A DNA stretch of 64,000 nt from an uncultured Planctomycetales bacterium (lineage in GTDB: Bacteria > Planctomycetota > MHYJ01 > JACPRB01), in the NCBI GenBank assembly GCA_964526305.1, contig CAZGKV010000005.1:41546-105545 (forward strand), read 5' to 3'. The notes beneath the pieces were generated by a model. That model did not search any database. It was not told the origin of the DNA and saw only the letters and a list, made by a program, of their open reading frames with translations. Below, in pieces: positions 6,527 to 47,469 of this stretch (positions within the stretch are counted from its first letter, which is position 1; every line of letters begins with the position of its first letter). The position numbers were made by a program, and so were the translations under genes.

Positions 6527-7831
6527 CTACTGGAGCGCTCCCCGTCCCCGCTTCTGGGCCGCCTGGGTCCCGGAAGAGCTCAGCCAAATCGGTGTCGAGA
6601 GCCGGTCCTCCGTCCACGGCAGGACTTCGGCGGGAGTGACCTCGGCGAGGATCGGCACTACTCTCTGGAGCGCTTGCGTGAGACGCTCCTGGCGAGCCAA
6701 GTTGCCCTTTTCGGAAGGAACAACCGCCGATCCGTCCTGCGAAAAGAGATCCGCATCTTCTGCGGCAACCCGGTATGCGATCGCCGATTTCCAGAGATCC
6801 GATATGCGGTCGAGATGGGTGATCGCCAGACCGTCGACGGGACAGACAACGAGGGCGTATCGTGCGAGAACGAGGTCGGGCCAACCGACGCGAAAAGGTC
6901 GTGGCCACCCGCCTTCCTCCTGAAGATGCGGTTCGGGGAGACGCACGGCGAGTTCGGGCGACTCGGTCGGGAACGGCCCCTCGCCATGGCGCGTGAGATA
7001 CGTTCGCAGCACGCCGAGGCGGCGAACGGGCCCGTCGAATTTCGACAGAAGCGACTCCGTGCCTTCGCCGGTGCACGTGCTCCACGTGGTGTGCGGGTGG
7101 AAGCCTCTCCACTCGTCCAGGAGCACTCCCTGCGCACCCTCGAAGACGACCGTCCCTTCGATATCGTGCAGAGCCTCCTCGACGACCGCCGGCCCGACTG
7201 GCCGGATCGCCTCGAGCCACCGGTCTACGACATTGGGATCCTCAAGCATCGCCCGCTCGGTGCGCGCGAGAGTTCCGTCGGGGAATCCGCGGAACTCGGC
7301 ATGCAGCCGTTGCTGCGCCTGAGAGGTCTTGCGGCGCAGATCGGCGCCGCCAACGGCGAGATCCCGGGCGCGAATGGCATCCTCGGGATGATCGAGCGCG
7401 TCGCGGACCGCCTCGCCGATTCCCACCCCGCAGCTTCCGTGGCGCGCGGGGCCTCGCGCGAGCTCCCGAAGCCGGCCGGCGGCCTGATGGAACGGCGTGA
7501 CGATTCGAGCGCGGTCTGCTATCGAAAGGCGCTGTAGGGCGTCGGGAACGCCCACTTCCTGGAGTCGGCGGGCTTCGACCAGGAGCGCGGTGGGATGAAC
7601 CACGACATCCCGAGCCAGATAGGTGCGGACTCCAGGAACGAAACTTCCGGCGCCAAATTGGGCGAAGACGTGCCGGCGCCCGTCGGGAGCGACGACGGTG
7701 TGACCGGCCTGCGCGCCGCCGTTCCAACGCACGATGAGGCGAGCTCCTCGCGTGCGTGTCAGCCAGTCGACGACGGTTCCTTTGCCCGAATCGCCGAACG
7801 CGAGGTCGAGGACGATCCAGGCTTCGTTCAC
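6527..7831 (-). CDS. Adenylosuccinate synthetase (PurA)-like GTP-dependent ligase, divergent
   Basis: FGDSGKG P-loop, GGAQAGHTV, FEGAQGVLLD, TRHGEGPFPTE. GTG start at 7831 overlaps the vWA gene stop (GTGA). Confidence 0.85.
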   Translation of the reverse strand: MNEAWIVLDLAFGDSGKGTVVDWLTRTRGARLIVRWNGGAQAGHTVVAPDGRRHVFAQFGAGSFVPGVRTYLARDVVVHPTALLVEARRLQEVGVPDALQRLSIADRARIVTPFHQAAGRLRELARGPARHGSCGVGIGEAVRDALDHPEDAIRARDLAVGGADLRRKTSQAQQRLHAEFRGFPDGTLARTERAMLEDPNVVDRWLEAIRPVGPAVVEEALHDIEGTVVFEGAQGVLLDEWRGFHPHTTWSTCTGEGTESLLSKFDGPVRRLGVLRTYLTRHGEGPFPTESPELAVRLPEPHLQEEGGWPRPFRVGWPDLVLARYALVVCPVDGLAITHLDRISDLWKSAIAYRVAAEDADLFSQDGSAVVPSEKGNLARQERLTQALQRVVPILAEVTPAEVLPWTEDRLSTPIWLSSSGTQAAQKRGRGALQ

Positions 7832-8775
7832 GGAGCCGTCGAGGCGTCGGTATCCAGTCTTGGAAGAGGGACGCCGTCTTTCCCGAGAGTCGCCGCCCAC
7901 GGCGTCAGCGCTCGGACGACGGCCCCGATGCGATCGGGCGGATGTCCGCGGCGTTCCAATTCCTTCACGAGCGCCGCCACGTCCGCGAGAGCTCCCTCTC
8001 CGAGGGCGACGATTCCCGCCGCGACGGCGCAGGTGTCGGCCGGGCTTTCCATGGAAATGACTCGATCGCCCAAGACGTTACGCCAGGCGCGCTCGCACCG
8101 GACGCGGCGGTCGAGGTCGGGGATGAGGAAGAAGGGTTCGAGTGCGCGCTGCGCCTCGTCCACGACGACGGCGAGGGGGAGATCCTCCTCGAGTTCGTCG
8201 CCGAGGAGGCGTCGGACCGCCTCGCGCGAGAGCTGCGGGTAGGGTTTTTCGTCGCCGGTGAGGAAGAAGTAGCCTCGCTTGCCGCGAAGTCTCCGGCAGT
8301 CCATCTCGAGATGGCGCGCGGAGAAGTAGAGGGCGAGTTCGTACGACTCGTGGTCCCCCGGACCTCCGTGTCCCTCGAGCCAGCACCAGGTGAGCCACTG
8401 ATCCATGAGCTCGCCGGTCGACTCGAACTGTCCTACCTGGAGCGGCGCTTGATCGCTGAAGGCGTCTCCCACCGCCATGAAGAGCACTTGCGGGTCGGCG
8501 ATCCCAAGGTCGAGGAGCGTCCTGACGAAGCCCGGGAGCTCCTTCCGCGCGAGCCTCTCGGGGATTACTCCCATGGAGCCGGTCACGTCGAGGGCGAACG
8601 CGATCGCGAGGGATTGCGGATGTCCGACGCTGTCGCGACTTTCCCGAAGCTTTACCCCGAAGGGTTTCATCAGATCGTGGATGCGTTCCTGACGGAAGAC
8701 CTTCTGGATCGGCAGATCGGCGCGCTTTCGCGCGATCGCTTCGTGAGCCTCATAGCTGTATCCGCCGAATCCCAT
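7828..8775 (-). CDS. von Willebrand factor A (MIDAS) domain protein
   Basis: ALDVTGSM (DxTxS MIDAS), AVGDA, ESYELALY, FLTGDE. ATG at 8775. Confidence 0.8.
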   Translation of the reverse strand: MGFGGYSYEAHEAIARKRADLPIQKVFRQERIHDLMKPFGVKLRESRDSVGHPQSLAIAFALDVTGSMGVIPERLARKELPGFVRTLLDLGIADPQVLFMAVGDAFSDQAPLQVGQFESTGELMDQWLTWCWLEGHGGPGDHESYELALYFSARHLEMDCRRLRGKRGYFFLTGDEKPYPQLSREAVRRLLGDELEEDLPLAVVVDEAQRALEPFFLIPDLDRRVRCERAWRNVLGDRVISMESPADTCAVAAGIVALGEGALADVAALVKELERRGHPPDRIGAVVRALTPWAATLGKDGVPLPRLDTDASTAP

Positions 8776-8779
8776 CGTC

Positions 8780-9697
8780 TCACCGGGACAAGGAAAACGG
8801 GATGTACTTGGGGGGGCCGAACACGGTGCGGGCGACGGCATCGACTTGGTCCTTCAAGGCCCAGGCGTCGGTGGCCGAGCTCGGATCGGCGTTTCGTCGG
8901 AGAAGCTCCGCGAGCTCGGAGGGCACGACGGCCGGATCATCTCCGAGGGCGTAGAGGACGGCCCGAGCGCTCATCGCCACGTCGGCCGCTCCCTGCGCGG
9001 GTGCGGTCGCGCGAGACCAACCGACGAGGGCGACGCCGTGGTCGCGTGCGTGGACGAGAAGGTGCGGCGGGACGATCGCGCCGTGGGACCAACCCGCGCG
9101 GTGGAGCCACCCGAGGACCTCGAGCATCCGTTTCCAAAGCCAGATCGAGTGTTCCGGGGGGACTCCGCCGGGGTAGGCGGCCCGCACGTCCTCGAGGGTG
9201 TGGACGAAGCCGCTTCTCCAACGCAGCACCAAGACGGGGCGCTCCCCCTCCTGTCCGTTCATGCCGAGCCTCGCCGGGCCGCACGCCACCGGCTGAGGGA
9301 GGAGTCTCGAGAAGTGCGGAGTTCCCGGAGCCGAACTCTCCGGGATTTGTTCCAGCACCGCGAACTCGCGGGCCAGGACGCCCGGGTCCGCCGGCGCGCG
9401 AAGGACCTTGATCACGACCAACTCGGTCAGCCGCGAGTCGCGCCGGGCGAAGAAGACGTCCGAGCTCTCGCCGCGCGCGATTCGTCCGAGCACGCAGTAG
9501 CGGGCGGAGCCGACCCAAAGGCGCGGTCGAGCGGGATCGAGGAGAGCCTCCTCTTCCGGCGACGGCGCGGTGGCACGCCAAGTTCCCGAATGGACCGCGA
9601 GCGGCGACGCGCAGAACGAACAGCGGACGGTCCCGGACGGCGGAGGCGGCGGCAGAGGCGCGCCGCAGTTCGGGCAGCGGTGTTGCTGGTAGCTCAT
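8780..9697 (-). CDS. Zinc-ribbon plus degenerate Ser/Thr kinase-like (pseudokinase) protein
   Basis: CPNC...CSFC N-terminus. IARGESSDVF, VVIKVL, HGAIVPPHLLV (catalytic Asp absent), LVGWS in place of DFG. ATGA overlap with the upstream gene. Confidence 0.75.
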   Translation of the reverse strand: MSYQQHRCPNCGAPLPPPPPSGTVRCSFCASPLAVHSGTWRATAPSPEEEALLDPARPRLWVGSARYCVLGRIARGESSDVFFARRDSRLTELVVIKVLRAPADPGVLAREFAVLEQIPESSAPGTPHFSRLLPQPVACGPARLGMNGQEGERPVLVLRWRSGFVHTLEDVRAAYPGGVPPEHSIWLWKRMLEVLGWLHRAGWSHGAIVPPHLLVHARDHGVALVGWSRATAPAQGAADVAMSARAVLYALGDDPAVVPSELAELLRRNADPSSATDAWALKDQVDAVARTVFGPPKYIPFSLSR

Positions 9698-11223
9698 TGG
9701 GGACTGCGATATCCGCGACTCTCCAGCGTCGGAGGGACGAGGTGGTATGCCGGAATCCCGCCGCCGCCCAGGGCCTCGCGGCAGAGCCGCTCCCGATGGA
9801 TCGCACGAGAAAACGCTTGGCGCACCCGTTTGTCGTCGAACGGCTTCCCTCGAACGTTCAGCATCAGGAATGCGGTTCCAAACGTGACGGTCGAATGGAA
9901 GTCGGATCGGCCGCGAAGGCGCGCGAGCGATTCCGGCGAGACGGTCTCGAGATAGTCGCAGTCTCCCCGCTCGTACAGCTCGAGTGCCCGGTCGGGATCG
10001 TCGATCGGAAGCCAGCGCACCAGCTCCTGCTTCACGGACGCCGCGTTCCAGTAGCGGTCGTTCTTCGCGAGCAGGATGTGCTTGCTTGGGACATGCTCGA
10101 CAAGCCGGAACGGTCCGTTCGCGACGACCGTATCGCTCCAGACCGCGTCCGACCGGGCCGGGTGGAGCGGATACCGCGAGGCGAGTTCGAGGAAATAGGG
10201 AACGGGCGCTCGGAGGCGGACGACGAGCGTGCGGTCGTCTTGCACAGCGACTCCTACCGAAGAAGCGTCCCCCGTGCCCTTGTGGAATTCCTCGGCTCCG
10301 GCCAGCACGAAAAGCGCGGAGGCGCTCGGGGACTCCGTCGACGGATCGAGGATCCTCTTCCAGGCGTATTCGAAGTCTCTCGCGCGGACGGGCTCGCCGT
10401 CGCTCCACGCGGCCTCGCGGAGATGGAAGACGTACCGCAAGCCGTCTCCCGAGATCTCCCAGCGTTCGGCGATTCCCGGAACGGGCGCCAGGGTTCTGGG
10501 ATCCGGACGCACCAGGCCCTCGAAAAGGCAGACGACGATGCGCTCCTCGGAGACCTCCCGGACCTGCGCGGAATCGAAGACGTCGACCTCCCCACCGTTG
10601 TTGAGCACGAGCACTCCGGATCCGGATCCCTTGGCGACCTCGTTGAGCGGATGGAGGTCGTACCAGTTTTGGTAGATCCCCGTCACCTCGCGATCGCGGT
10701 AGAGGTTTTGACTCGCGAAGAAGTAAAGCGGGATCACGGGCAGCTCGTCGAGGAGGATCTCCTCCGCTCGCTGGAGCAGCCTCGTTCGCGCGGCGGCGTC
10801 CTGTTCGCGGGCGGCGCGGTCGAGGCAATCCTCGTACTCGGCGTTGGACCATCCGGTGGTATTGAACGGATTTCCCTTTCGCATCAAGTCGAGGAAGGCG
10901 ACGGGGTCCGGAACTTCGCCGACCCACGCTCGACGGAGGATCTCGTACTCGCCGCGATCCGCGGCGGCGAGCAGACCTTTCCAGTCCTGGATCGAGTGAT
11001 GGATCTCCACCCCGAGCCGCTCGTTCCATCGCTCGATGAGGCTCGTGCTCAGGCGGGTGGTCGTTCCGGTCGGATGGATCGTGAGGAGGACCTGCGGGAA
11101 ACCCTTTCCCTCGGGATAGCCGGCCTCGGATAGGAGGCGGCGGTCTTCGTCCGGAGCCTGAGACCTCGGCGACGACGAACAAGCAAGCATCGACAGGATC
11201 AGACCGGCCCGCAGTGTGCGCAT
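9694..11223 (-). CDS. Circularly permuted peptide ABC transporter substrate-binding lipoprotein (OppA/family 5)
   Basis: Lipobox MLAC. The normally C-terminal segment LLSEAGYPEGKGFP...PVIPLY...HPL comes first, then GSGSG, then the normally N-terminal segment VLNNGGE..LFEGLV..WSDG..GPF..PFDDKRVRQA..LVPP. Confidence 0.85.
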   Translation of the reverse strand: MRTLRAGLILSMLACSSSPRSQAPDEDRRLLSEAGYPEGKGFPQVLLTIHPTGTTTRLSTSLIERWNERLGVEIHHSIQDWKGLLAAADRGEYEILRRAWVGEVPDPVAFLDLMRKGNPFNTTGWSNAEYEDCLDRAAREQDAAARTRLLQRAEEILLDELPVIPLYFFASQNLYRDREVTGIYQNWYDLHPLNEVAKGSGSGVLVLNNGGEVDVFDSAQVREVSEERIVVCLFEGLVRPDPRTLAPVPGIAERWEISGDGLRYVFHLREAAWSDGEPVRARDFEYAWKRILDPSTESPSASALFVLAGAEEFHKGTGDASSVGVAVQDDRTLVVRLRAPVPYFLELASRYPLHPARSDAVWSDTVVANGPFRLVEHVPSKHILLAKNDRYWNAASVKQELVRWLPIDDPDRALELYERGDCDYLETVSPESLARLRGRSDFHSTVTFGTAFLMLNVRGKPFDDKRVRQAFSRAIHRERLCREALGGGGIPAYHLVPPTLESRGYRSPQ

Positions 11224-11224: not shown

Positions 11225-12187
11225 CTATCGCCCCATCTCCCTTTCCCACGCGCCGACGGATCCTTCGGCGTCGTCCACGAGCGCCTTGAACGCATCGCGG
11301 TCGCGCGCGGCGTCCTTCAGCTCCTTCTCCAGCTTCTCGTTCGTCTTGTTCAGGTTCTTGATCTTCTCGTCCAGCACCCTGATTCCGGACTGCGCGGCTT
11401 TCCACTTCTTCTCCGCAGCCTCCATATCCTTCTTGAGTTTCTCTTTTTCCTTCTTGTCCTTCGCGCGGTCGTACTTGAAAGCGGCCTGTTTGAACGCCTC
11501 CTGGAGTTTCTTCTCCGCTTCGACGGCCGAGTTGTACTTCCGGAGGATGTCGTCCGAGTACTTCGGAAAGTCCTTGAGGGCCTTGTTGCATTTCTCCCAG
11601 CGGACGAGCGCGCTTTCATGTTTGGGCTTGCGAGTCTCGAGCTCTTTCTTCCAATGGGCCAGACGCTCCTTGCGATACTCGTCGATCGCGTCCAGGGCCT
11701 TGCCGATTTCGTCGAACTTGCCGATCCAGAGCTTGGCGATCGCGATCGCGCGATTGAAGAGGACCCCGCCGGTTTCGCGGTTCTTGTCGCCGGGCATCAC
11801 GCTCCGCGCGAAATAGTTCCGGATGCACTCCACGTCGTCGCTCGAGAACTTCTTGCGCACGGCGGAGGCCAGCTCGCCGGGCTCTTTGACCCGTTTCCGG
11901 TACTCGCCGAACTCGGTGCCTTGCTTTTCGTGGAAGTCGGTGGCCTCTTTGGCCAAGTTTCCAAGGCTCTGAATGAGGCTGGTCAGGGAGGAGCCGACCT
12001 GTTCCGCAAGCGTGCAGCAGGGGTCCGCGATCGACTTGTCGACCGTGTCGTCCTTCACCGGCTGCTCGCGCTTCGCGGCCACGGCCACGGCGGCCTTCCG
12101 CGCCTCGGAGAGGTGTTTCTTCGCTTCGGCGACGGAATCGGAGAAAAGGAGGGTACCGGCCAGGCCCAGCCACGCGTTCGCCATCAT
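11225..12187 (-). CDS. Exported Lys/Glu-rich coiled-coil protein
   Basis: Signal peptide MMANAWLGLAGTLLFS and heptad-like charged C-terminal half. ATGA overlap with the upstream gene. Confidence 0.75.
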   Translation of the reverse strand: MMANAWLGLAGTLLFSDSVAEAKKHLSEARKAAVAVAAKREQPVKDDTVDKSIADPCCTLAEQVGSSLTSLIQSLGNLAKEATDFHEKQGTEFGEYRKRVKEPGELASAVRKKFSSDDVECIRNYFARSVMPGDKNRETGGVLFNRAIAIAKLWIGKFDEIGKALDAIDEYRKERLAHWKKELETRKPKHESALVRWEKCNKALKDFPKYSDDILRKYNSAVEAEKKLQEAFKQAAFKYDRAKDKKEKEKLKKDMEAAEKKWKAAQSGIRVLDEKIKNLNKTNEKLEKELKDAARDRDAFKALVDDAEGSVGAWEREMGR

Positions 12188-14049
12188 TTGTGGACGTTCT
12201 CCTTCAGGATCTCGAAGCCTCCGCCGACGCCCCAACGCTGGAGTTCGCCCCATCCACCGGAGGTCTTCATTCGCCGGAAAGTAAGAACATAGACCCAGCA
12301 GCAGTCCCCGCGATCCACGGCCGCGTTGACTTGGATGAACTTGAAGTGCTCCCATACGTTGTTGTTCCCGTATCGAGCCCACAGGGCGCGCTCCGTCCAG
12401 TCGCTGTAGATTCCGACGCGCAGGATCGTGCGCTTGAGCTCTTTCCATTCGGTATTGAGAAGAGCCACGATCTCCGTTTCGATCTTGTCCCACTCGCCGC
12501 CGGTCATCGTCGGCTTGGCGAACCGCGCGTTGAGAATGCGCAGTTTCCTCGCGTCCTCTTCCTGTTTTAGAATCTTCGCCGCCCGCACGCGGACGGCGTC
12601 CAGTTCGGTCTGGGCTTCTCCGGCCCGCTTGGCCGCGCCCGTCATGCGATCGGTGAGCTCCCACTTGATCTGGCCTTCTTCCGTCTGGAGCGGGCACAGT
12701 ACCTGAATCAGGAAAATCATGTTCTGGGCGGAGACCGCGTCCGTGACGGCCTGCTCCGCATTGCTTTTCGCGTGCTCGCCCTTCTCCGCCCTCTCGACGG
12801 CCTCCCTTGCCACCTTCAGATTCAACTCCAGGCCGTGTTTCGCCTCTTCTGCCGCTGCAGTTTCGAGGATCGAGTAGACGGTCTTTCGCTCGCTTCCGAT
12901 TCTCGAAATCTTGAGAATGGCGTCACCCACGTCGAGCCCGAACTTCTTGCCGGTCTCTGCCGGATTCGGGTATTCCTTTTGAAACAGCTCGATCACTCCG
13001 GCCGCCCGATTCAGTTGCTCGAACACGTCGGGCAAGGTCGATCGAACCTTATCGAGATCGGGTTTTTCGCGCGCCTTGAGGGCCGCAGCAATGGCGTTCT
13101 CGAGGGCCCCCCTGGCCTTTTGGATGGGTTCGATTGCGGCCGCCAGTCCCTCGACAAGCTTCTGGAACTTGTCCTTTTCCGCTGACACGCCGCCTTCCAG
13201 GCCGGGGATGACCGAGTCATAGTACTTCGCTACGTCATCGAACTTCTCCATCGCCCACTTGAATCTCGGGTGTCCGGCGATCTCCGGCCGGTTCGAATAG
13301 TCCTTCAGGAACTGCTCGCGTTTCTTCTTGAGTTCGACGTACGCGTTCTTCACCCACCGGACCTTGCTGTCGACTTCCTCCCTCGCTTTGCCGGCTTCCT
13401 CTATCTTCTTGCGCAGAAACTCGATCTCGCCGCAGAAGTTTCCGAGCAGGCTCTTCTCGTTGCTGGGAATGCGTTTGATCGGCTCTCCCTCATGGACCCG
13501 GATTCCGGCTTCTTTCGCCTTGGCCTTCGCCGCGCTCAGGAGCTTCAATACGGAGACCACTTCGGAGTGATCGCTCGAAAATTCCTTTCCGTCTTTGTCC
13601 TTCGCTTCACCCCAGGTCTCGTCGGCGGACACAAGAGCCTCTTGCGTCGCGTCCAGGTCCTTCTTCTCCAGGGCTTTCAGCGCCTCGTCCACCAAGCGCC
13701 TGATCGCACTGAGGCCGGTCTTTACCCGGGCCGGAAGCTCCGGTCCCAGATTCACCCCGGCCTTTTGAGCCTTGTCGCGGAGATCGTCGAGCCGGTTCTT
13801 GGTCTTTACCACGGCCTCGAGGGCTTTCTGCTCGGCAGAAAGCCCCTTGTCCAGTTCCTCCCAGTATTTTAGGGCTTCGAGGAAATACTTGCGGACGAGA
13901 TCGGGCTTCTTCTTGGCCAACTGCGTCTCGGTCGAATCGAGGCTGCGCTTGATCTTTCCCAGGAGGTCTCTGGACTTCTGGTCCAGATCCTGCGCGTGGG
14001 TCGGTGCAGCGACGAGAGCGGCGGCCACCAGAAGCGAGGCGCAAGTCAT
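12184..14049 (-). CDS. Exported alpha-helical protein with C-terminal globular domain, function unknown
   Basis: Signal peptide ending APTHA, long amphipathic helical body, 621 aa with genome-typical codon use. Confidence 0.8.
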   Translation of the reverse strand: MTCASLLVAAALVAAPTHAQDLDQKSRDLLGKIKRSLDSTETQLAKKKPDLVRKYFLEALKYWEELDKGLSAEQKALEAVVKTKNRLDDLRDKAQKAGVNLGPELPARVKTGLSAIRRLVDEALKALEKKDLDATQEALVSADETWGEAKDKDGKEFSSDHSEVVSVLKLLSAAKAKAKEAGIRVHEGEPIKRIPSNEKSLLGNFCGEIEFLRKKIEEAGKAREEVDSKVRWVKNAYVELKKKREQFLKDYSNRPEIAGHPRFKWAMEKFDDVAKYYDSVIPGLEGGVSAEKDKFQKLVEGLAAAIEPIQKARGALENAIAAALKAREKPDLDKVRSTLPDVFEQLNRAAGVIELFQKEYPNPAETGKKFGLDVGDAILKISRIGSERKTVYSILETAAAEEAKHGLELNLKVAREAVERAEKGEHAKSNAEQAVTDAVSAQNMIFLIQVLCPLQTEEGQIKWELTDRMTGAAKRAGEAQTELDAVRVRAAKILKQEEDARKLRILNARFAKPTMTGGEWDKIETEIVALLNTEWKELKRTILRVGIYSDWTERALWARYGNNNVWEHFKFIQVNAAVDRGDCCWVYVLTFRRMKTSGGWGELQRWGVGGGFEILKENVHK

Positions 14050-18022: not shown

Positions 18023-18093
18023 CGACCTCCGTTCTCCGTACCCGAAGTTGAGTAGAGTGAGAAGCCGCGACTACTACCGCTATAATCAGCCGC

Positions 18094-21000
18094 GTGTTCT
18101 TGGCCTTCGCGCGATGGTTCCTGCGGCTCCTGGGTCGGCTTGACCTCGTCTGGCTTGAGCTTTCGGGGGACGAGTCTCATGCGTGGGTGATCGCGAGAAC
18201 GGAAACCGGGCCGCTCCTCCCGGAGGGCCTCGCGCGAATTCGAGCCTCGCATCCCGCCTGTCCGTTCCTTCGCGGGCTGAAGGAGCATGAGGGAAACGGC
18301 CGCTACCGACTTGCCGGAGATCAAGTCTGGGCGTTCCTGGATGCGGTCGCCGGCACTCGAATGGCCCGGCTCGAAGCGGTCGCTCGCGTCCCCTGGAAAA
18401 AAGTCGCGTTCCGACCGCTCGAAGTCGAAGCGGCGATCGATTCGGCGGTGCCTTCCCTCGCGGTCCGCTACTCCGGTCAAGCCCGATGGGCGCGCGGGCG
18501 ATGGATGCGACTCGGGGACGAATGGTGGGACGCGAGGCTGACCGACGAGCACGCGGAGCTGGTTCTCAAAGGGAGCGTGACGTACGGCCCTGAGAGACTC
18601 CGTCACGTCCTGGCCGATTTCGCCCCTCTCTGGAACGTCCGGGGCACGATCTGGAAGTACGATCCGAATCGGTCGCTGACCCGCGCCTCCGCCGAGCCCG
18701 CCGAGGACGGTTCGATCGCGGTTCGCTGCGAGTACCTCGTCCGGCGCGAAGAGATTCGGCCGCTCCCCGGCGATGCGGGATGGGCCCTCGTGGGGGATTC
18801 GGTCGTACCTCTCCCCAAACTCACGCCGCTCTTGGATCGCGCGCTTCGCGAGGGACCCGTTCGACTGGATGCGGACGCGGCCGCCGCTTTCCTCGAGGGC
18901 GAGGGTGCGGCGCTCCTTCCGGGGGCCCGCGTTCTCACGAAGTGCCTCCCCGTCTTGACGGCGAGGATGGACGGGCAGGATCTCCTTCTCGAGATCGCGT
19001 TCGTCTGGGGAGAATCTTCCGTCGCTTCCGAGGGCGATCTCGCGGGGCGCCGGACCGTGCGGCGCGGGATGAACTGGTGTCGACTCGAGCCGGCGGCGCT
19101 CGAGGAGGCACGGTCCGCCCTTACCGCCGCGCTCCGGCGTGCCTTCGTGGACGCGCGAGTCGAGGGGACTCGGCTCCGCCTGCGAGAGGACGACGTCCCG
19201 GAGTTCCTCGCGCACGGGACCGGATGGCTTCCTTCGTGGAAGGTTCTCGTTCCCAAGGCGGCCCCCGCGGTAGTTCGGCCGCCGACCCGTCCGCAGTTCC
19301 GCGTAATTCCGATCCGGGAAGACGGGCTGGGAGGGATAGGACTCGAAGTCTCGTTCGATCTTGGCGGAGAAACGTTTTCCCTGGCGGAGTTGGCGATCGC
19401 GCGAAGAGAGGGAAGTCGGTGGGCGCGGAGGAACGACCGTTGGATCGAATTCGATCGCGGGATGGTGGCGCGGATTCTCGAACTGGCGCCACCCCGAGCG
19501 CCGATGGACCGCCCCCTCCCGGTAGACGCCCACACCCTTCGCACGCGAGTCGAAGGATGGAGGAGGATCGGCGCGGTCACCGTGGATCCCGAGGTTCTCC
19601 GCTTGCGAGCGGTGATGGACGCCGGCCGGCCGCCGCTCGCGTGGCCTCCGGCGCTCGCCGCCTCCTCGACCGGCGCCATGCGGATCCACGCCTGGATGGA
19701 GGCGTGTTCGGCTCTCGGGGTGAATCCGACGATGTATGCTCCTACGGATCGCGATACGTTCGCCGCGATGACGGGATTCCTCCTGGCGCGGAAGGAGCGT
19801 GGGGGACGGGGGCCCGTTCTCGTCGTCGCGGGAAACAAGCGACTTTCGGCCTGGACGTCGGGGCTCTCGACCCTTCTTCCGCTCCGGAGCCTCGTCCTGC
19901 GACGGAAGGCTCCGTCGCAGGAGGAAATCGCGGCGGCGGACGCCGTGTTGGTGGCGCCGAACTCCCTCGACACGGCGGTGTATCGCGCCGTCGAAACGCA
20001 TTGGGCCGCCGTCCTCTTCGATCAGATCGATCGGACGTTCGCCACCGACGAGTCCAAACCGTACCGAGCGGCCTCCCGGATTCGGGCGAGATTGCGCGTG
20101 GGTCTCGTGTCGGATCGCAAGGCCTTGGCGAAGGAGCCGAAGATGCGGGCCTTGCGCGGGCTGGTCTATCCCGGGATCGAGGACGAATCGCCGGCCATCT
20201 TCTCGCACGATCCGGAGCAAGGAGCGCATCTGATTCCCGTCTCTTCCCTCGCGACACCGGCGAGCCGGCCGGGGTCGGCGGCGCCCGGACCTGCGTATCT
20301 CGCTTGGCGCGATCAGTGGCGTCGCGGCGTGCCGACCCTCGCCCGGCCCGACTGGCTCCGCCGTCATGCCGGCGAGATCCTGAACCTCGAGGAGGATTCG
20401 GATTCGAAACGCGCCATCGGCAAGCTCCAGGCCCTGTGGCGCGCGTACCGCGCGACCCACGCGCGCATCGATGAGTTCATGATCGATTGGATCGCCGATC
20501 TCTACTATCTCCATGTGGGAGCCGAAGCGGGGTTGGCCTGGCAGTGGAAGCATGTCGATCTCGCGCCGAGTTTCCCCGAGATCGATCTCTTCGTGGAGTT
20601 CCAGCAGGGGCGCGCTCCTCTGGCGGCGTGGAGGAGATTGGCGGGGGTCCGTCCCGCCGGGAAGTTCTACGAGGAGCACCGAGAACTCGTGGATGCCGCC
20701 TGCGCCCGAGCCGTCGAATCCGCAGGGCTTCGACCGCCCGAGGGAAGTCGTCGCGTTCGACGAACGCTCTTCCAGGGAGCCGCGGTCCGAGCGGACTTCG
20801 CCCGGGAGATCGTTCTGGGACGCGCGCACCGGTGGAGTACGCTGGCGCCCGAAATCGCGGCGATCTTGAAACGCGCGGAATCGGAGCTTCGGTCCAAACC
20901 GGAAGCTCCCGTGCCGCCGCCCGTCCGGCTGGAACTCGACTTCGGTCGTGTCGAGAAGCTGAAGCAGGAGAGCGACGCGGTGCGGGAGATCCTCGCCGCG

Positions 21001-21630
21001 CCCGAGGACGAGCCCGTCGTCGAGGAGGAAGAGACGATCGGACCGGTGCGCACCGCCGACGGTCGCGTGCTCTACGCCAGTCTCGCCGCCACGCGCGCCG
21101 TGTGGAGGGACCTGGACTTCATTTCGCGTCAGGTGGTGACGGACGTCTACCGCGGTTCGGTGCGCAACGTGAGGGAACTCGAGATCCAGCTCCGGCCCAC
21201 CGGACGGATGCCTCTGGCGACGCTCGAAGAGATCAACGAGCGCGCGACCGAGCGTGTGGGAGATGCGCTCCTGGTGCTGGAAGGAGAGACCCTCGCGGCC
21301 AACGAGGAGTTCCACGACGAGCTCGAAGTCCTCATCGACGGCCGCGTCGTTTCGGCGGAGGAGTCGGACCCCTACCGCGCGCTGGTGGGTCGATTGACCG
21401 AGGCCGAGAAGACTCTGGTCGACGCCTTATGCCGGGAAGGATCTCTTCCCTCCTCGCGCGCGGACGGACTCTTGCGACCGATGGGGGCGATGGCGTCCCT
21501 GACGGCCGAATCGATCAACGAGAAGGCTCTCGAGACGGTGGGGGATATCGTACTCGCCGCGGACGGAGAGGCCTTCGCGGTCGAGGAGGACGATCTCGAG
21601 CCGTTGCGGAAGGCTACTTCCACTCGTTGA
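18094..21630 (+). CDS. TerB_N/TerB_C-domain protein fused to degenerate SNF2-like N-terminal region (Shango SngA-like)
   Basis: C-terminus LELDFGRVEKLKQESDAVREIL..EEINERATERVGDALL and ESINEKALETVGDIVL (two TerB_C-like units), central TerB_N-like segment, SNF2-like remnants lacking GKT/DEAx. Confidence 0.7.
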   Translation: MFLAFARWFLRLLGRLDLVWLELSGDESHAWVIARTETGPLLPEGLARIRASHPACPFLRGLKEHEGNGRYRLAGDQVWAFLDAVAGTRMARLEAVARVPWKKVAFRPLEVEAAIDSAVPSLAVRYSGQARWARGRWMRLGDEWWDARLTDEHAELVLKGSVTYGPERLRHVLADFAPLWNVRGTIWKYDPNRSLTRASAEPAEDGSIAVRCEYLVRREEIRPLPGDAGWALVGDSVVPLPKLTPLLDRALREGPVRLDADAAAAFLEGEGAALLPGARVLTKCLPVLTARMDGQDLLLEIAFVWGESSVASEGDLAGRRTVRRGMNWCRLEPAALEEARSALTAALRRAFVDARVEGTRLRLREDDVPEFLAHGTGWLPSWKVLVPKAAPAVVRPPTRPQFRVIPIREDGLGGIGLEVSFDLGGETFSLAELAIARREGSRWARRNDRWIEFDRGMVARILELAPPRAPMDRPLPVDAHTLRTRVEGWRRIGAVTVDPEVLRLRAVMDAGRPPLAWPPALAASSTGAMRIHAWMEACSALGVNPTMYAPTDRDTFAAMTGFLLARKERGGRGPVLVVAGNKRLSAWTSGLSTLLPLRSLVLRRKAPSQEEIAAADAVLVAPNSLDTAVYRAVETHWAAVLFDQIDRTFATDESKPYRAASRIRARLRVGLVSDRKALAKEPKMRALRGLVYPGIEDESPAIFSHDPEQGAHLIPVSSLATPASRPGSAAPGPAYLAWRDQWRRGVPTLARPDWLRRHAGEILNLEEDSDSKRAIGKLQALWRAYRATHARIDEFMIDWIADLYYLHVGAEAGLAWQWKHVDLAPSFPEIDLFVEFQQGRAPLAAWRRLAGVRPAGKFYEEHRELVDAACARAVESAGLRPPEGSRRVRRTLFQGAAVRADFAREIVLGRAHRWSTLAPEIAAILKRAESELRSKPEAPVPPPVRLELDFGRVEKLKQESDAVREILAAPEDEPVVEEEETIGPVRTADGRVLYASLAATRAVWRDLDFISRQVVTDVYRGSVRNVRELEIQLRPTGRMPLATLEEINERATERVGDALLVLEGETLAANEEFHDELEVLIDGRVVSAEESDPYRALVGRLTEAEKTLVDALCREGSLPSSRADGLLRPMGAMASLTAESINEKALETVGDIVLAADGEAFAVEEDDLEPLRKATSTR

Positions 21631-24600
21631 GGGAAAGCGCCTCGACCTCGTCTCGAGGTCCGAGCCCGTGTCCGGTGCGATGCCGGACCTCGGCCAAGAG
21701 GGCCCGGGGCTCGATCCTGTCGCCGAGAAAACCGATGTCCCAAAGCAGGAAGTTCTCGCGTCCTCTCGCCAGGAGTCGCGTTCCGCCCGCCCGAAAAGCC
21801 ACGCCGGCGATGTCCTCGCCCTGCCGGAGACTTCCCTCGACGGGTTCGCCCGTCTCGCACTCCCAGAAGCGGACGAACGGGTCGTCTCCGGTCGTGGCCA
21901 ACCATCGTCCGTCGGGGCTGAATTCGATTTCCATGCGAGAGCTACCGTGGCGGATCGTGCGACCCACGAGTCGGCCGGTTTCGGCGTCCCACATCCGGAC
22001 GAATCCGCTCGGAGTGCGGCCGGCCAGTCTGCGGCCGTCGGGGCTGAAACGCCAAACGCGGGGTTCCTCGTCCTTCGCGATGGCGTCGCCGATGGGCTCG
22101 CCGGTCTCCGCATTCCAAAGTCGAGCGGACCAATCCTTGCCCTCGCACAGAAGTCTTCGGCCGTCCGGACTGAACCAGACGAAATTCACCGGGATCGAAT
22201 GCTCCAGAATCTTGCCGGGGGGAGAGAGCGCCGGAGCGTCCCACAAACGGACGCTTCGATCCTCGCAGGCAGCGGCGATTCGGGTGCCGTCGGGACTCAC
22301 GGACCACTGGAGGATCTTGGCGGGGAGTTTGAGCGGAGTACCCCGTGGGCGTCCCTGAAGATCGAAGGCCGATAGGGTATCCCCCGAAGCCTCGAGGAAG
22401 AGGCGGCCGCCGTGGATGGCTCGCCAGTCTCCGAACTCCCCCGCTTGAGGGTTCGTCTTCACGCGGAGGCCCGACGCCAGGTCCCATAGAGATTCCACGC
22501 CCTCCGGAAGTCGGTGGGAGATTCGTCGTACGGCGAGCGTCACGAGGTGGGAGCCGTCGCCCGCGAAGCGAACCGAGGTGACGCCGCGGTCGTGTCCCAG
22601 TTCCGCCGAGAGAGCCTCCCCGGTCTCGACGCTCCAGACGCGTGCCGTCCGCCCGGTTCCGATGGCGAGTCGCTTTCCGTCCGGGCTGAAGGCGACGTCT
22701 CTGACTTCGTCGTCCAGAGGGAAGAGGCGGAGTCGAGAACCGTCGGAGGCGCGCCACAAGGCCGCGGACTTGTCCCAGCTTCCGGTGACGATGAGCGATT
22801 CGTCCGGACTGACGGCGATCTTGTCGATGTACGCCTCGTGTCGGAGGGGAGAACCGACGACCTCCCCGGTGGAAGCGTCGCGGAGTTCGAGGGTGGTGTT
22901 GTCGGTCTGCGCGACCAACCGCGTGCCGCGGAGAGCCGTCTCCCAACAGCCTTGTCCCCGAAAGGCGGAGCGCGGCGCGGGTTTTTCCACCGTCCAGACT
23001 CGGACCGGACCGCCGATTCCCCAGACGAAGAGGAGATCGGAGTCCGAACCGAATTCGATGCGGCCGACCGGCGAGTCCAGTCGCAGCGCCGATCCGAGCG
23101 CCTCGCCCGTGGTCCCGTCCCAGAGTCGAACCCGGCGATCCTGACTTCCCGTCGCGATAAGGCCTCCATCCGGGCTGATCGCGACGGCCGAGACTTCATA
23201 CCGGTGGCGCATCGCTGCGCCGATGGGCTTCCCTTGCCCCAAGTTCCACAGGCGCGCGGTTCCGTCCTTCGCGCCGGTGACGATCTTGGCGTCTCGAAGA
23301 GCCAGGCTGGTCAAGGGGGCGTCGGTGAGGAGAGGCTCCCCGACGGGCTTGCCGGTCGCCGCGTCCCATTTCCGGATCGATCCTCCCTTCCCCGCCCCGA
23401 GAAGCGTGGAGCCGTCGGAGGTGAACGCCACGGCGCACAGGTCGCTGTCGTTCACCTGTCCGCCGATCGAGCGATGCGACGCGAGATCCCAGAGTTCGAG
23501 ATAGCCGCTGGAATTGACCAGGGCTATGCGACGACTGTCCGGAGCAAACGCGACCAGGATCGGCCGGCTGATGAGATCGAGGTCCGGTTCCTCGCGCGCA
23601 CCGGTCTCCGCATCGCACATGCGCGCCGAGTAGGTCGGCATGCGGCGATCCAGCAGGAGATCGCCCGAGGAGGAGATCACGACGGCTTTCTTCCCGTCCG
23701 GAGTGAAGGCTGCCATGGCGGGATCGAGGCCGGGATGCCAAAGAGACAAGGTGGAAATTTTCTTGCCCGATTCCGTGTCCCAGAGTACGGCCCCCTCCCG
23801 TTCTACGGCGACGAGTCGTTTTCCGTCCTCTCGCAACGCCAGCGACTTGAGTCCCTTCGCGCGAACTTCGACGGAAAGTTTGGTCCCGGTTCGCGCGTCC
23901 CAGAGGGAGACCGAACCGTCGTCGCCGGCGATCGCCACTCTGCTCGACGCTCGCGCAATGGAGAGGAAGGGCGGGGTGCCGTGAGGTCCGAGGATGGCAC
24001 GCAGGGACGCCGTCGATCGGAGCATCATCGCGGCGCCCGCGCGGTAGCGTGGCAACGGGTCCGCCGCGAAGGCCTCGGCGAAATGCACCGCCGCGGCGGT
24101 GGCGTCGCCGCCCTCCGCCTCCTGATGGCCCATCAGGGCGAGGCTGTAGGCAAGCTTCTGTTTTGCGCGGCGTTCGCCCGATTCCGCCAACCGGCGCTGC
24201 TCCTCCGTCCGATCCCGTTCGGCGGTGACGTCTCGGACCCGTTGCTCCGCCTCGCGTTGCGCCCGGAGGGCCTCTCGCCGGGCGCGGAGGAGCTGACTGG
24301 TCCCGAACGCCGAACCGCCGAGGATCGCGAGGACCATCGCGGTCGTCGCGGCCCACAAGAGCGGCTGCTTTCGGATTTTCTTCGCGACGACGTAGGTCCA
24401 CGTCGGGCGCCGAGCGTACCGGAGAGGGTCATGTCGCCGGAACGCGGCGATGTCTTCCGCGAGCTGGTCCACGCTCGCATACCGCCTGCCCGGATCCTTC
24501 TCGATCGCCCTGAGGATGATGGCTTCGAGGTCGGGAGCGAGCCCCGGCGCGAGTCTTCGGGGCCACAGGGGCTCGGACGACAGCACTTGGGCGAGGATGT

Positions 24601-25411
24601 CCGCGGAAGTCTCTCCGACGAACGGAGGTCGCCCCGTCGTCATCTCGTAGAGGATCGCGCCGATCGAATAGACGTCGCTGGGCTTGTCCGCCCTCCCTCG
24701 CGCCTGCTCCGGCGCCATGTAGTTCGGCGTCCCCACCACGGCGTTGGTTTCCGTGAGTCCTGGGACGCTCGTTTCCTTGGCGAGCCCGAAGTCCATCACG
24801 TATACCTGCCCGTGCCGATCGATCATGACGTTCGACGGCTTGAGGTCGCGGTGGATGATTCCCTTGGAGTGCGCGTAGGACACCGCCTCGGCGATCTTCG
24901 CGACGGTCTCGAGCCGGTCGTGCTTCGGAGCGAGGGTCACGCCGTCCACGAGGTGCATCGCGATGAAGGGCGCGCCTTCGTGCTCTCCCACCTCGTAGAT
25001 TCTCGCGATGTTGGGATGGTCGAGGGAAGCCGCGAGCTGCGCCTCGCGGCGGAAGAAGGCCCGCGCCCGGTCGTCGCCGATCGATTTCAGGAACTTGAGC
25101 GCGACCCACCGGCGGAGGTCGGGATCCCATCCGCGATAGACGAGTCCCATGCCGCCGGACCCGATCTTGTCGACGCGCCAGAAGCGGCCGACCTTCGCGG
25201 CGGGGTCCTTCATCGCCTCGAGCGCTTCGGGCGGCACTCGAGTCTCGAGCGAGCGGATTTGCTCCGGGGTGAGAGGGAGATGCGCGAGGAGTCGCGTGCC
25301 GTGCGAGCGATCGTAGGATCGGATCGCGGACTCGACCTGTTCCCGCCGGATCCATCCGCGCTCGACGGCGAGCCGAGCGAGGTCGAAGTCGGCGTCGGAC
25401 GTGTCGGCCAT
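21614..25411 (-). CDS. Ser/Thr protein kinase with TM segment and WD40 repeats
   Basis: [23 protein letters not shown], then many AFSPDG/VRLWD repeats. Confidence 0.92.
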
Positions 25412-25414
25412 CCT

Positions 25415-25987
25415 CTACGATCCCAGTCCCTGCTCCGCGAGCATCGTGTCGAGCGTGGCGGACACCTCGAACTTTCCCGTCGCTTCCGCAATCCTCCGTG
25501 CCCAATCGCGGAGATAGGCCATATCGAGCTTGGTCCCTTGGCGGATGATGATGTCTTCGATATGGCCCAAGTCCTTGCGGCGATAGGCGGCGAGTTTGTA
25601 GAGGATGAGATCCTCGGCGGAGACGATGGGAACGGCGCGTTCGTACATCCGGATTCTGACGGAGCGCGCGAAGGCGCTCTCGTCGAACGGCGTAGTTCCC
25701 AACGCGAAATCAGCATCCCGTCCGCCCAGGGAGGCCACGAACCAGGTATCGATGAAGAACAGAGTCTCGGCTCTGGAGTTAACGTGAAACCCGTCCTGTC
25801 GCAGGACCCCGATGAGCCGACCCACCTCCTCTTCTCGGACCCGGAGGAGGAGATCGACGTCCTTCGTCGGGACAACCTGCCCCCAGGCGGGGAGGGCGAG
25901 CCCGCCGTAGACTACATAGGAAACTTTTTCCCGCTCGACAAGGTCGATCACGCGACGGAAGAGCTCGGCGAGCGCGATCTGGGTCAC
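25415..25987 (-). CDS. Nucleotidyltransferase-family protein (putative toxin/MNT-like)
   Basis: YGGLALPAWG...TKDVDL (G-G/DxD signature), DLILYKLAAYRRKDLGHI. Confidence 0.75.
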   Translation of the reverse strand: MTQIALAELFRRVIDLVEREKVSYVVYGGLALPAWGQVVPTKDVDLLLRVREEEVGRLIGVLRQDGFHVNSRAETLFFIDTWFVASLGGRDADFALGTTPFDESAFARSVRIRMYERAVPIVSAEDLILYKLAAYRRKDLGHIEDIIIRQGTKLDMAYLRDWARRIAEATGKFEVSATLDTMLAEQGLGS

Positions 25988-26187
25988 GACCGCTTCCAGA
26001 ACTTGGCGAGTCCGGGGGAAGGATCATGCCGCACGGGGACCTCGGGGAACCCACGATGGACCTCCTCGCAGAGCGCCTCGAATTCTCGGATGGACTCCTC
26101 CAGAGTGAGGCGACGAAGGCGCTCGCGATTTGCTGCGGCGTTCGCGGCCGCTAGGCGCTCCAGACTGCGGACCCATTTCTCGTCCAT
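25984..26187 (-). CDS. Small helical protein coupled to the nucleotidyltransferase (antitoxin-like)
   Basis: 67-aa ORF MDEKWVRSLERL... with GTGA overlap into the NTase start. Confidence 0.6.
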   Translation of the reverse strand: MDEKWVRSLERLAAANAAANRERLRRLTLEESIREFEALCEEVHRGFPEVPVRHDPSPGLAKFWKRS

Positions 26188-26223
26188 GGCGGCTATCATG
26201 ATACTTCCAGGGCGTTGGGGAAG

Positions 26224-28977: not shown

Positions 28978-29033
28978 GCACTACCAGTATATACTCGCCG
29001 CGGGAGAATACTGCGGGTTCCTGCCGATAGAAC

Positions 29034-29240: not shown

Positions 29241-29341
29241 AAGACCAGAGGTTGTTCCCCGTGCGTGGTATACCGCGAGGGTCGGCGAGGCCGGGTCGGA
29301 ATCCTGTTCCGCCCCGGCACGGTTTGGATTAGACTTCTCGC

Positions 29342-30679
29342 ATGCCCATCCCCAAACGCGAATCGACTCAGATCCTCTCCGCCCTCGCCGCGGGAGTCGT
29401 CCCGCGCGTAGGGCTCTCCCACGTCGCCGTCGGGCGCCTCCCCGAGATCGCGGCCCTGAAGCAGGACCTGGAGGCCGTCGGCGCAGGCGGCGCGGCGATG
29501 CGCTTCATCGTCGGGCGCTACGGGTGCGGGAAGAGCTTTCTGCTCCACCTCGTCCGCACCGTCGCCTTCGATCACAAGTTCGTGGTGGCCGACGCGGACT
29601 TCACGCCGGAGCGGAAGCTCTATGCGACCGACGGGCAAGCCGTCGGGATCTACCGCGAGCTCATGAAGAACCTCTCGACGAAGACGATGCCGACGGGAAA
29701 CGCGCTCCCGGCGATCCTCGAACGATGGATCTCGGACGTTCAGGCAACGCTCGCGACTACCGGACAGGCGCCGGAGCCCCAAGCCGTGGAGTCGAAGATC
29801 GTCGAGACCGCCAATGCCATGCACGAGCTGGTCCACGGGTACGACTTCGGCGTCGTCCTGCGGAGCTACTATCGCGGCTACCTCGAAGGCAAGGAGGAAC
29901 TTAAGCGGGAGGCCCTCCGGTGGCTGCGGGGGGAATTCTCGACCAAGACCGAGGCGCGCGAGAAGCTCGGCGTCCGCGTGATCGTGGACGACGACAACTA
30001 CTACGACTATCTCAAGGTGATGGGGCGCTTCGTCCACGACATCGGATACGCGGGGCTGCTCGTCAATCTCGACGAGGGCGTAAACCTCTACAAGATCACC
30101 CACGCGAACTCGCGGTCCCGGAACTACGAGAAAGTTCTCTCCATTCTCAATGACTGTCTCCAAGGCGGGGCGTCGCACCTCGGATTCCTGATGAGCGGAA
30201 CCCCGGAATTCCTCGAGGACACCCGCCGAGGGCTCTACAGCTACGAGGCGCTTCGGTCCCGCCTCTCGTCGAACCGGTTCGAGAAGGAGGGGATGCGCGA
30301 TCTCTCGGGCCCGGTGGTCCGGCTGACGACGCTGACGAACGAGGAGGTCTTCGTCCTCCTGACGAAGATCCGCGACGTCCACGTCCAGCACCACGGGACG
30401 CCGAAGCCGCTCGAGGATGCCGCGCTCCAGCGATTCATGGAGCTTTCCCTGCAGCGCCTGGGGGCGAAGGAATTCCAGACTCCGCGCGACGTGGTGCGCG
30501 ATTTCGTGAATCTCCTGAATCTGCTCCAGCAGTATCCGGACAAGAAGTGGGAGGATCTCCTGGGGCAGGTGCCGCCGGCCGCCCCTCCTACGTCGTCGGA
30601 AGCGAGCCCGGCACCGCCCGAAGAACCCGCGATTCCGGCCGCGGATCCGATGGAGCGCTTCAAGAACTTCCAAGTGTGA
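29342..30679 (+). CDS. DUF2791/BrxD-like P-loop ATPase (Shango SngB-like)
   Basis: LAAGVVPRVGL, GRYGCGKS Walker A, LLVNLDEG Walker B, GLYSYEALRSRL, TPRDVVRDF. Confidence 0.88.
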   Translation: MPIPKRESTQILSALAAGVVPRVGLSHVAVGRLPEIAALKQDLEAVGAGGAAMRFIVGRYGCGKSFLLHLVRTVAFDHKFVVADADFTPERKLYATDGQAVGIYRELMKNLSTKTMPTGNALPAILERWISDVQATLATTGQAPEPQAVESKIVETANAMHELVHGYDFGVVLRSYYRGYLEGKEELKREALRWLRGEFSTKTEAREKLGVRVIVDDDNYYDYLKVMGRFVHDIGYAGLLVNLDEGVNLYKITHANSRSRNYEKVLSILNDCLQGGASHLGFLMSGTPEFLEDTRRGLYSYEALRSRLSSNRFEKEGMRDLSGPVVRLTTLTNEEVFVLLTKIRDVHVQHHGTPKPLEDAALQRFMELSLQRLGAKEFQTPRDVVRDFVNLLNLLQQYPDKKWEDLLGQVPPAAPPTSSEASPAPPEEPAIPAADPMERFKNFQV

Positions 30680-31271: not shown

Positions 31272-31724
31272 CTAGACGGGGTGGACGGGATCTCCGGCGC
31301 GGATCCGGCCGGTAACCAATATCTCCGCGCGCAAACCGCCGCGATGGGTGAGGGCCTGCTGGACCCCGGGGACCGTCAACCGCTCCAGAGTGCCGCAGGG
31401 CTCGCAGAGCTTGATTCCCCGAAGGCGCGCTTCCCCGACCAAGAACTCGCGATCCACCAGATGGTTCAAGGGCACGCCTTCCGTGAGGATGTTTCGGCGG
31501 GATCGGAGCCCGGTAACCTCAATTCGATAGTCGCGGCGGATCGCCTCGAGCGCCTCCGATTCGATGAGCGTGACTTGCTTGGGGGGCGGCTTCTTCGGGA
31601 GGTGGAAGTAGCGATCCCCCTCGAGCCCTAATCCCTCCACGGCCACGACTTCCGAGACCGCCACGGGATCGGACCCCTTCGCGGGAGCGATGTGGATAGA
31701 GAGAACGCGACCGCTCCAAGTCAT
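31272..31724 (-). CDS. MOSC domain protein
   Basis: GLGLEGDRY, RQ-like VTLIESE, SRRNILTEG, LCEPC, RGGLRAEILVTGRIRAGD. Confidence 0.85.
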   Translation of the reverse strand: MTWSGRVLSIHIAPAKGSDPVAVSEVVAVEGLGLEGDRYFHLPKKPPPKQVTLIESEALEAIRRDYRIEVTGLRSRRNILTEGVPLNHLVDREFLVGEARLRGIKLCEPCGTLERLTVPGVQQALTHRGGLRAEILVTGRIRAGDPVHPV

Positions 31725-31753
31725 GGCGCGGCATGATACTCTTAGGGGAACGA

Positions 31754-36275: not shown

Positions 36276-36349
36276 CCGATGATATAGAAATAGCCAGGCT
36301 TCTTTTATATCATGATATAAAAGAAGCCTGGCTATTTCTATATCATCGG
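36276..36349. repeat. Perfect 74-bp spacerless palindrome, AT-rich
   Basis: 36276-36312 is the exact reverse complement of 36313-36349. Arms are 13/37 GC. Confidence 0.95.
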
Positions 36350-40698: not shown

Positions 40699-40700
40699 CT

Positions 40701-47361: not shown

Positions 47362-47469
47362 CGCGGATTGGATTCCCGGAATTGCATGATTCCTGCAAAC
47401 TCTCCGCGGGTCAGTCCGTTACTAGAACATGGAGATTCGAAATCGAGTATATCACGCTTCGGTAAGGAG

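Follow-up and report, generated by a model that had tools for sequence, protein, structure and literature searches.

Circular permutation in an OppA-type solute-binding protein from an uncultured Planctomycetales bacterium and in its relatives

The swapped gene and its product

The DNA analysed here is a stretch of 64,000 nucleotides from an uncultured Planctomycetales bacterium and is called the window in the following. On its minus strand, at 9694-11223, it carries a gene for a lipoprotein of the solute-binding protein (SBP) family SBP_bac_5 (family 5 or cluster C), in which the parts of the chain stand in swapped order: The chain begins with the segment that corresponds to the canonical C-terminal third, and the N-terminal two-thirds follow. 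Cluster C proteins, i.e. OppA, DppA, MppA, NikA and their relatives, belong to the best-studied receptors of bacteria and serve as popular biosensor scaffolds. The gene and its parts are as follows.

9694..11223, minus strand: complete coding sequence of the circularly permuted SBP_bac_5 lipoprotein, 509 amino acids and a TGA stop codon (list of open reading frames and sequence)
11179..11223, minus strand: signal peptide and lipobox (MRTLRAGLILSMLA-C15), read from the sequence by eye
10642..11142, minus strand: C-part, residues 28-194, homologous to the canonical OppA/DppE C-terminal third (PDB alignments)
10615..10641, minus strand: junction E195-V-A-K-G-S-G-S-G203, between the old C-terminus and the old N-terminus of the mature chain (sequence and family alignment)
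9709..10614, minus strand: N-part, residues 204-505, homologous to the canonical N-terminal two-thirds (PDB alignments and Foldseek)

The ATG of this open reading frame opens MRTLRAGLILSMLAC..., the chain after the Cys15 lipobox begins with SSSPRSQAPDEDRRLLSEAGYPEGKGFP, and the C-terminus reads ...GGGIPAYHLVPPTLESRGYRSPQ before the stop. Residues 28-194 correspond to most of lobe 2 followed by the last strand of domain I, and residues 204-505 to domains I and II and the first part of lobe 2. The GSGSG within the junction (G199-S-G-S-G203) is coded by GGATCCGGATCCGGA at 10615-10629, written as the reverse complement of the plus strand.

The initial annotation of this DNA had described the start with the canonical C-terminal segment, the passage through GSGSG and the subsequent N-terminal two-thirds, and had predicted that a homology search with SBP_bac_5 would yield two high-scoring segment pairs in swapped order. 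The description was confirmed in all details that could be checked, and the predicted pattern was obtained. Pfam SBP_bac_5 (PF00496) matched two stretches of the window protein with 240 bits, the cut-off being 32.4, and phmmer searches against the PDB gave two strong segment pairs in swapped order for every top hit, with E-values of about 1e-60 to 1e-71 (best 5e-71). In the alignment with DppE of Bacillus subtilis (8ay0), residues 14-325 match query residues 195-499 (independent E-value 4e-48) and residues 353-507 match query residues 32-185 (independent E-value 1e-19). The same holds for OppAIV of Borrelia (4gl8; 31-339 with query 204-501, 355-523 with query 28-194), and B. subtilis OppA (8are) is likewise swapped (355-509 with query 29-183). 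Alignments of this kind are far beyond what would be expected by chance. The canonical N-to-C order was absent from the window protein when compared with all solved relatives inspected and with 105 full-length canonical matches, and its score with the NCBIfam OppA equivalog NF011684 was 225.8 bits against a cut-off of 947. These alignments identify the window protein as a naturally occurring circular permutant among the SBPs of family 5 (cluster C; OppA/MppA/DppE-like).

The structure prediction proposed by the initial annotation gave a compact and confident model with strands on both sides of the junction. AlphaFold2, run on the 13-sequence family alignment described below, reached a mean predicted local distance difference test score (pLDDT) of 83.4 and a predicted template modelling score (pTM) of 0.80; only the signal peptide and residues 211-227 are weak regions, and the junction has a pLDDT of about 76-85. 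Foldseek searches of the PDB with this model returned MppA (4toz), OppA, DppE and relatives with E-values of about 1e-19 to 1e-20, in alignments of about 250-330 columns and template modelling (TM) scores of about 0.4-0.5, in which the N-part alone was superposed, the aligner being order-dependent.

The assumption that the termini of family 5 proteins sit in one domain, which makes a join feasible, agrees with structural work on oligopeptide-binding proteins, where the N- and C-termini lie close together on flanking strands of the domain I sheet (PMC10924461). Since the old termini are adjacent in this sheet, the join is sterically trivial. For YejA the lobe boundaries were given as 1-286 plus 540-579 for lobe 1 and 287-539 for lobe 2 (PMC10924461), and the new ends of the permuted chain are equivalent to about residues 326-352 of DppE. 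We infer from the aligned positions that the cut lies inside lobe 2 and leaves both hinge crossings in place. Because the cut would fall within one lobe and the join where the old termini touch, the hinge crossings and the Venus-flytrap cleft would be kept. Joining the chain at the old termini has the further consequence that the lipid anchor is relocated from domain I to the other lobe, lobe 2. The chain would accordingly start in lobe 2 (old position of about 350 to the end) and enter domain I on the old C-terminal strand. From there it would pass through the KGSGSG junction into the old N-terminal strand, run through domains I and II and return to lobe 2, to end at the point where canonical proteins go on into the 'LLxEAGYP' helix.

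Regarding the ends of the gene, the ATG at 11223 is the better fit to the family alignment and to the operon spacing when compared with the start at Met12 in the public gene call (P0001; MLACSSS..., 498 amino acids), in which the signal peptide is lost. An alternative in-frame ATG at 11295 would give a longer form that overlaps the upstream gene. The export signal of SBP_bac_5 and cluster C proteins was recognised by eye in the window protein. Its h-region is short (AGLILSMLA) and one Arg lies within the strict PROSITE lipobox window, i.e. the signal peptide appears plausible and imperfect; the lipoboxes of the relatives are clear at the aligned position. The start codon lies 1 nucleotide past the stop of the upstream gene and the TGA overlaps the downstream ATG (ATGA, 9694-9697). 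With G+C contents of 0.68/0.49/0.80 at the three codon positions (GC3 0.80) in a genome of 65% G+C, the gene resembles its neighbours. Its frame is uninterrupted, its composition is that of the host and its translation is coupled to the genes on either side.

A permuted family with several cut points

The initial annotation had also suggested a search for other permuted homologues, and these exist. In a database of 5.8 billion proteins, the 13 best matches to the window protein (41-51% identity) come from separate samples and assemblies and are all colinear with the query. A single alignment covers 93-98% of the query in ten of them, and of the other three, two are fragments and one carries a large insertion; matches beyond the best 13 span only about 60% or 33% of its length. 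When the halves were used separately in piecewise BLAST, the C-part lay before the N-part in 13 of 13, and the next 105 full-length proteins, all from the best 120 matches, were canonical. These 13 relatives share the order, both ends and the junction. Their layout, designated type A, consists of a signal peptide or lipobox, '...A(R/K)xLLAEAGYPEGKGFP...', the junction 'HPLNEVvKGDGSGtLVINN' and the end '...GGQxPAYHxVPPxxxGY'. The window protein has the same order, the same ends and an HPLxEV-G-rich-LVxNN junction, as is typical for the type A clade. Alignment A1, which contains 13 sequences, shows a mean column identity of 62%, and G201 of the junction is invariant. In this alignment, KGSGSG of the window protein is a variant of the conserved Gly-rich junction (KGDGSG) of the family and no special linker. 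In genome annotation the permuted proteins are named 'oligopeptide-binding protein' or 'hypothetical', and the swapped order is not flagged.

The comparison with the relatives also bears on the question whether the gene could be an artefact, i.e. a local misassembly, an engineered insert or what is left of the middle part of a decayed N-C-N-C tandem gene. The codons of GSGSG comprise two BamHI sites and resemble a synthetic linker, and natural tandem fusions (see below) hold the same internal C-to-N join. However, the 13 relatives, whose samples and assemblies are independent, agree in the order, in both ends and in a junction of the KGDGSG type, the open reading frame possesses its own signal peptide and stop, and its G+C content and codon pattern match the surroundings. 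Furthermore, canonical as well as permuted SBP queries matched the window solely inside the open reading frame, leaving no SBP-like remnants in the flanks. An artefact is therefore hardly credible, and the sequence data rule out misassembly and engineering to the extent that such data can. An engineered linker was ruled out, the junction being common to the relatives.

Permutation in this family is not restricted to one layout. Among the best 150 matches of an HMMER search in 1.84 billion cluster representatives, which were classified by the order of their parts, about ten further clusters are permuted. Type A' proteins (P0158, P0239) start about 15 residues later ('KPFPxxxLLYNT') and end with '...ARKLLREAGY..'. 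Type B proteins (P0192, P0240, L009, L010, L013) start about 45 residues earlier ('DLRVRQALxLAIDR') and end with 'GTYYYxFN'. When genome contigs were scanned with the family alignment, most of the loci obtained were canonical OppA loci, which share the conserved patterns; all loci were reclassified by piecewise tblastn, which gave L008 (Planctomycetota) and the type B loci from Firmicutes. The latter belong to metagenome-assembled genomes of Peptostreptococcaceae/Clostridiales and encode type B permuted SBPs at the following positions.

L009, 7779-9467 and 9698-11338: tandem pair, downstream of OppB/OppC
L010, 731-2386
L013, 1-1197

The best 150 matches also include about a dozen tandem fusions in a single open reading frame, with the order N-C-N-C(-N-C...) and a length of up to 2,843 amino acids (P0121-P0124, P0126, P0127, P0129, P0132, P0137, P0141, P0144, P0150), which contain two to four or more SBP_bac_5 domains. 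The window protein aligns colinearly across the internal C-to-N join of these fusions (query 31-501 with P0121 1477-1974). Three of them were inspected (P0123, P0132, P0150) and found to be uninterrupted, with short internal C-to-N linkers and, at the N-terminus, a signal peptide or a hydrophobic segment like a membrane anchor.

The presence of at least three different cut points among SBP_bac_5 permutants shows that permutation happened, or was trimmed, more than once. The count of independent events is based on the cut points and not on the neighbour-joining tree of the re-linearised sequences, in which the bootstrap was 0% for all type A proteins together and 100% for the clade of second SBPs described below. 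Because several cut points, living fusions and tandem permuted pairs (L005) are found, we infer that the permutants originated by in-frame fusion of tandem binding-protein genes, after which the outer parts were lost; a shifted gene boundary would serve in place of the truncation.

Transporter genes of the relatives and the window copy

The flanks of five operon versions (L001-L009) were compared. The permuted genes stand beside OppB in all of them and beside OppC wherever the contig reaches that far. L001, L002-L004, L006-L007 and L008 have the order permuted SBP, OppB, OppC and second permuted SBP. In L005, a pair of permuted SBPs precedes OppB, after which the contig ends, and in L009 (type B) OppB and OppC lie upstream. 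The second permuted SBP after OppC was located as follows.

L001, 13470-14996
L002, 13437-15005
L006, 4386-5915
L008, 5540-7132

These second proteins have about 38-40% identity to the window protein and a longer junction ('LEGxGAPADGVL') and form a separate clade (100% bootstrap); no Opp ATPase genes were called beside the operons that contain them. In L001 and L006, the operon adjoins genes for AnmK, for a SIS protein similar to MurQ, for a NagZ-like enzyme of GH3 and for an aminotransferase. GH3 is missing from L002-L004, where AnmK and the SIS gene are present, and L002 also has the aminotransferase. This recycling-gene context was examined in L001-L004 and L006-L007.

As the permuted genes lie beside OppB/OppC, permutation is compatible with service to a transporter, and this context offers no evidence for a sensor role. 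Hence, the permuted family would comprise ordinary receptors for Opp-type ATP-binding cassette (ABC) importers. Their ligands are probably cell-wall-derived peptides or muropeptides, as suggested by the neighbourhood of recycling genes, by DppE as the best sequence match and by MppA as the best fold match. DppE is known to bind murein tripeptide (PMC10924461).

The window copy differs from this picture. Queries for OppB and OppC from the operon of a relative gave no tblastn match in the 64 kb, and Pfam detected neither BPD_transp_1 nor an Opp ATPase in the 30 largest candidate open reading frames of the window (stop-to-stop frames selected by length and third-position G+C, smaller ones being left out). 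Recycling genes of the AnmK, SIS or GH3 type are also absent near the window copy. The sole ABC-like Walker A motif, at 63956-64000 on the plus strand, belongs to an ABC-F-like gene that is cut by the window end and does not look like OppD/F by eye. The initial annotation had called the protein an orphan. This stands insofar as no permease or ATPase was found in the window; it is peculiar to this one copy, since the relatives examined adjoin OppB.

The protein is an outlier in sequence as well. In a leave-one-out count it differs at 28 of 120 family-invariant positions and keeps 92, compared to 0-8 differences in other full-length members. In the conserved 'EKHGxxWTxP' region, six residues are missing from it. 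One changed position deserves mention.

10915..10917, minus strand: codon of Glu103 (leave-one-out conservation count and alignments)

All other permuted members have Asp at this position, in the motif RRGWIGDY, which reads RRAWVGEV here. In B. subtilis OppA and DppE, the aligned residue is the Asp of the GDF/PDY motif, and the change is conservative. We take the position to be the equivalent of OppA Asp419, the Asp that binds the alpha-amino group of the peptide.

Such divergence could mean that the window copy is a decaying redundant paralogue, which drifts to loss of function once parted from its transporter. The changes at 28 of 120 invariant positions, the six-residue deletion in 'EKHGxxWTxP', the short and imperfect signal peptide and the low confidence for residues 211-227 are in line with decay. 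On the other hand, the frame of 509 codons is unbroken in a genome of 65% G+C, its G+C pattern (0.68/0.49/0.80) is typical of expressed genes, start and stop are coupled to the neighbours, the fold is predicted with confidence and most invariant residues are kept. We therefore regard decay as quite improbable. Rather, the window copy would be a divergent paralogue that lost its linkage to a permease. Most likely, it has kept the ability to bind a peptide-like ligand in the periplasm, its specificity being altered, and would use a permease encoded elsewhere in the genome.

The genes directly next to the window copy raise the question of another function.

8780..9697, minus strand: gene for a zinc-ribbon and protein-kinase-like protein, downstream, its ATG overlapping the SBP stop (context)
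11225..12187, minus strand: coiled-coil gene, upstream, ending 1 nucleotide before the SBP start codon (context)
12184-14049, minus strand: ORFan coiled-coil gene, 621 amino acids (homologue search)

The gene at 12184-14049 had itself as the sole match among 5.8 billion proteins, and the N-termini of both upstream coiled-coil proteins (11225-14049) resemble signal peptides. The zinc-ribbon/kinase-like gene is part of a three-gene module at 6527-9697 on the minus strand, together with g7828 and a divergent gene similar to adenylosuccinate synthetase (PurA). This module is kept at 54-74% identity, without the SBP, in two contigs of Myxococcota (L088 8001-12328; L089 8001-12114). The protein g7828 has a MIDAS-like DVTGSMG motif and received no assignment by Pfam, NCBIfam or PDB sequence searches, PHROGs alone giving a match. 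The PurA-like gene scored 211 Pfam bits, which is below the NCBIfam purA cut-offs. In PHROGs, the module matched phrog_3043 (kinase), phrog_2971 (unknown) and phrog_1211 (PurZ/PurA-like), and a homologue in Stigmatella is named 'gp247'. Thus, the module could be phage-derived, nucleotide-modifying or related to defence. PADLOC returned nothing for the SBP, and for its neighbours weak kinase or coiled-coil noise alone.

An orphan permuted SBP in such a setting might have been recruited as a transporter-independent periplasmic sensor or scaffold for its operon. The tight packing, with a gap of 1 nucleotide upstream and the ATGA overlap with the kinase-like gene, fits this idea, as does the absence of a permease from the window, and a change of function is suggested by the residues that differ where the family is otherwise invariant. 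Nevertheless, the module of kinase-like, g7828 and PurA-like genes occurs in the two Myxococcota contigs without an adjacent SBP and the coiled-coil gene at 12184-14049 matched nothing but itself in the database, hence co-occurrence lends no support to a functional link. Moreover, the kinase-like protein has, by inspection, no membrane-spanning segment that could receive a periplasmic signal. We regard a sensor or scaffold as fairly unlikely. The more specific scenario, in which recurrent permutation of cluster C proteins was followed by departure of the window copy from transport, so that it now acts as a lipid-anchored receptor for a phage-related kinase-like/PurA-like module, appears unlikely to us. 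The initial annotation had proposed a sensor or a relocated membrane anchor; the anchor has indeed moved to the other lobe, and the sensor finds no comparative support.

Further genes of the window are mentioned for completeness. A TerB_C protein (18061-21630, plus strand), a BrxC/BrxD-family ATPase (PF10923, 520 bits; 29333-30679, plus strand) and an Lhr-like DEAD-box helicase (31700-33850, plus strand) are clustered within about 15 kb, a region that could be defence-island-like. Six large Ser/Thr kinases on the minus strand (21614-28980, 41233-50566 and 59299-61149) are fused to WD40, TPR or FGE-sulfatase-like domains, and three kinase-FGE paralogues among them stand in a row. Judged by these kinases and by the Myxococcota homologues of the kinase-like gene, the window may have a Myxococcota origin, although its record names a Planctomycetales bacterium. 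An alpha-2-macroglobulin-like pair at 36343-41121 (minus strand) consists of a gene with MG2, A2M and bait region, followed by a gene with TED and receptor-binding domains.

Taken together, we consider it probable that the window gene encodes a permuted cluster C lipoprotein which arose by fusion and truncation, that its relatives are Opp receptors and that the window copy is still functional together with a distal permease. Several observations speak against this view. There is no permease or Opp ATPase within the 64 kb, which makes the partner transporter hypothetical, and the co-location with OppB/OppC by which an Opp/Dpp receptor is recognised is missing for the window copy, unlike for its relatives. 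In the neighbour-joining analysis, the bootstrap for the main permuted clade including the window protein was 43%, and the permuted proteins as a whole never formed one clade. Of the bilobed three-domain fold, the Foldseek superposition covers only the N-part (TM of about 0.5). Residues 211-227 after the junction are strongly conserved in the relatives; they are divergent and of low confidence in the window model, for which reason the modelled binding site may be altered or impaired. Finally, the assignment of muropeptides is based on the gene neighbourhood of the relatives and on weak best-match similarity to DppE and MppA.

Comparison with known systems

A natural permutation in the OppA-type cluster was not reported in the full-text literature searched, most papers in subscription journals being outside its coverage; the one natural circular permutant described there is TpMglB-2 of the unrelated sugar-binding cluster B. 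The occurrence of a conserved permuted family in Opp operons indicates that the fold tolerates new termini in lobe 2 and, from the same context, that relocation of the lipid anchor to the other lobe is possible without loss of transporter service. The permuted state would have been reached repeatedly in nature through tandem fusions, and it represents a clean case for the fusion/truncation route to permutation, given that intermediates and several end states still exist. For protein engineering, the permutants provide ready-made permutation sites which have been tested by evolution. The findings are thus relevant for the structure of binding proteins, for protein evolution and for the engineering of biosensors.

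With OppA, MppA and DppE the window protein shares homology over both parts, the RxxW..(D/E).xDP region, the location as a lipoprotein or in the periplasm and relatives that are encoded with OppB/OppC. It differs from them by having the C-terminal third first, the anchor on lobe 2 and no adjacent transporter genes.

A second comparison concerns TpMglB-2 (Tp0684) of Treponema pallidum, a circularly permuted glucose-binding lipoprotein and founder of 'Type Ic / Cluster Bc' (PMC4990184). In both cases a natural permutation in a ligand-binding lipoprotein of ABC transporters has founded a subfamily, and TpMglB-2 retains ligand binding (PMC4990184). However, TpMglB-2 is a sugar-binding protein of cluster B without sequence homology to the window protein. 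Its permutation moves three strands of the N-lobe to the C-terminus and needs a fourth hinge crossing (PMC4990184), whereas the window protein, judging from the lobe boundaries (PMC10924461), is cut within one lobe and would need no extra crossing.

The tandem SBP-SBP fusions (P0123, P0132, P0150) contain inside their chains the same join, in which a C-part leads via a short linker into an N-part. They have canonical outer termini and two or more full domains, whereas the window protein consists of one domain with new termini.

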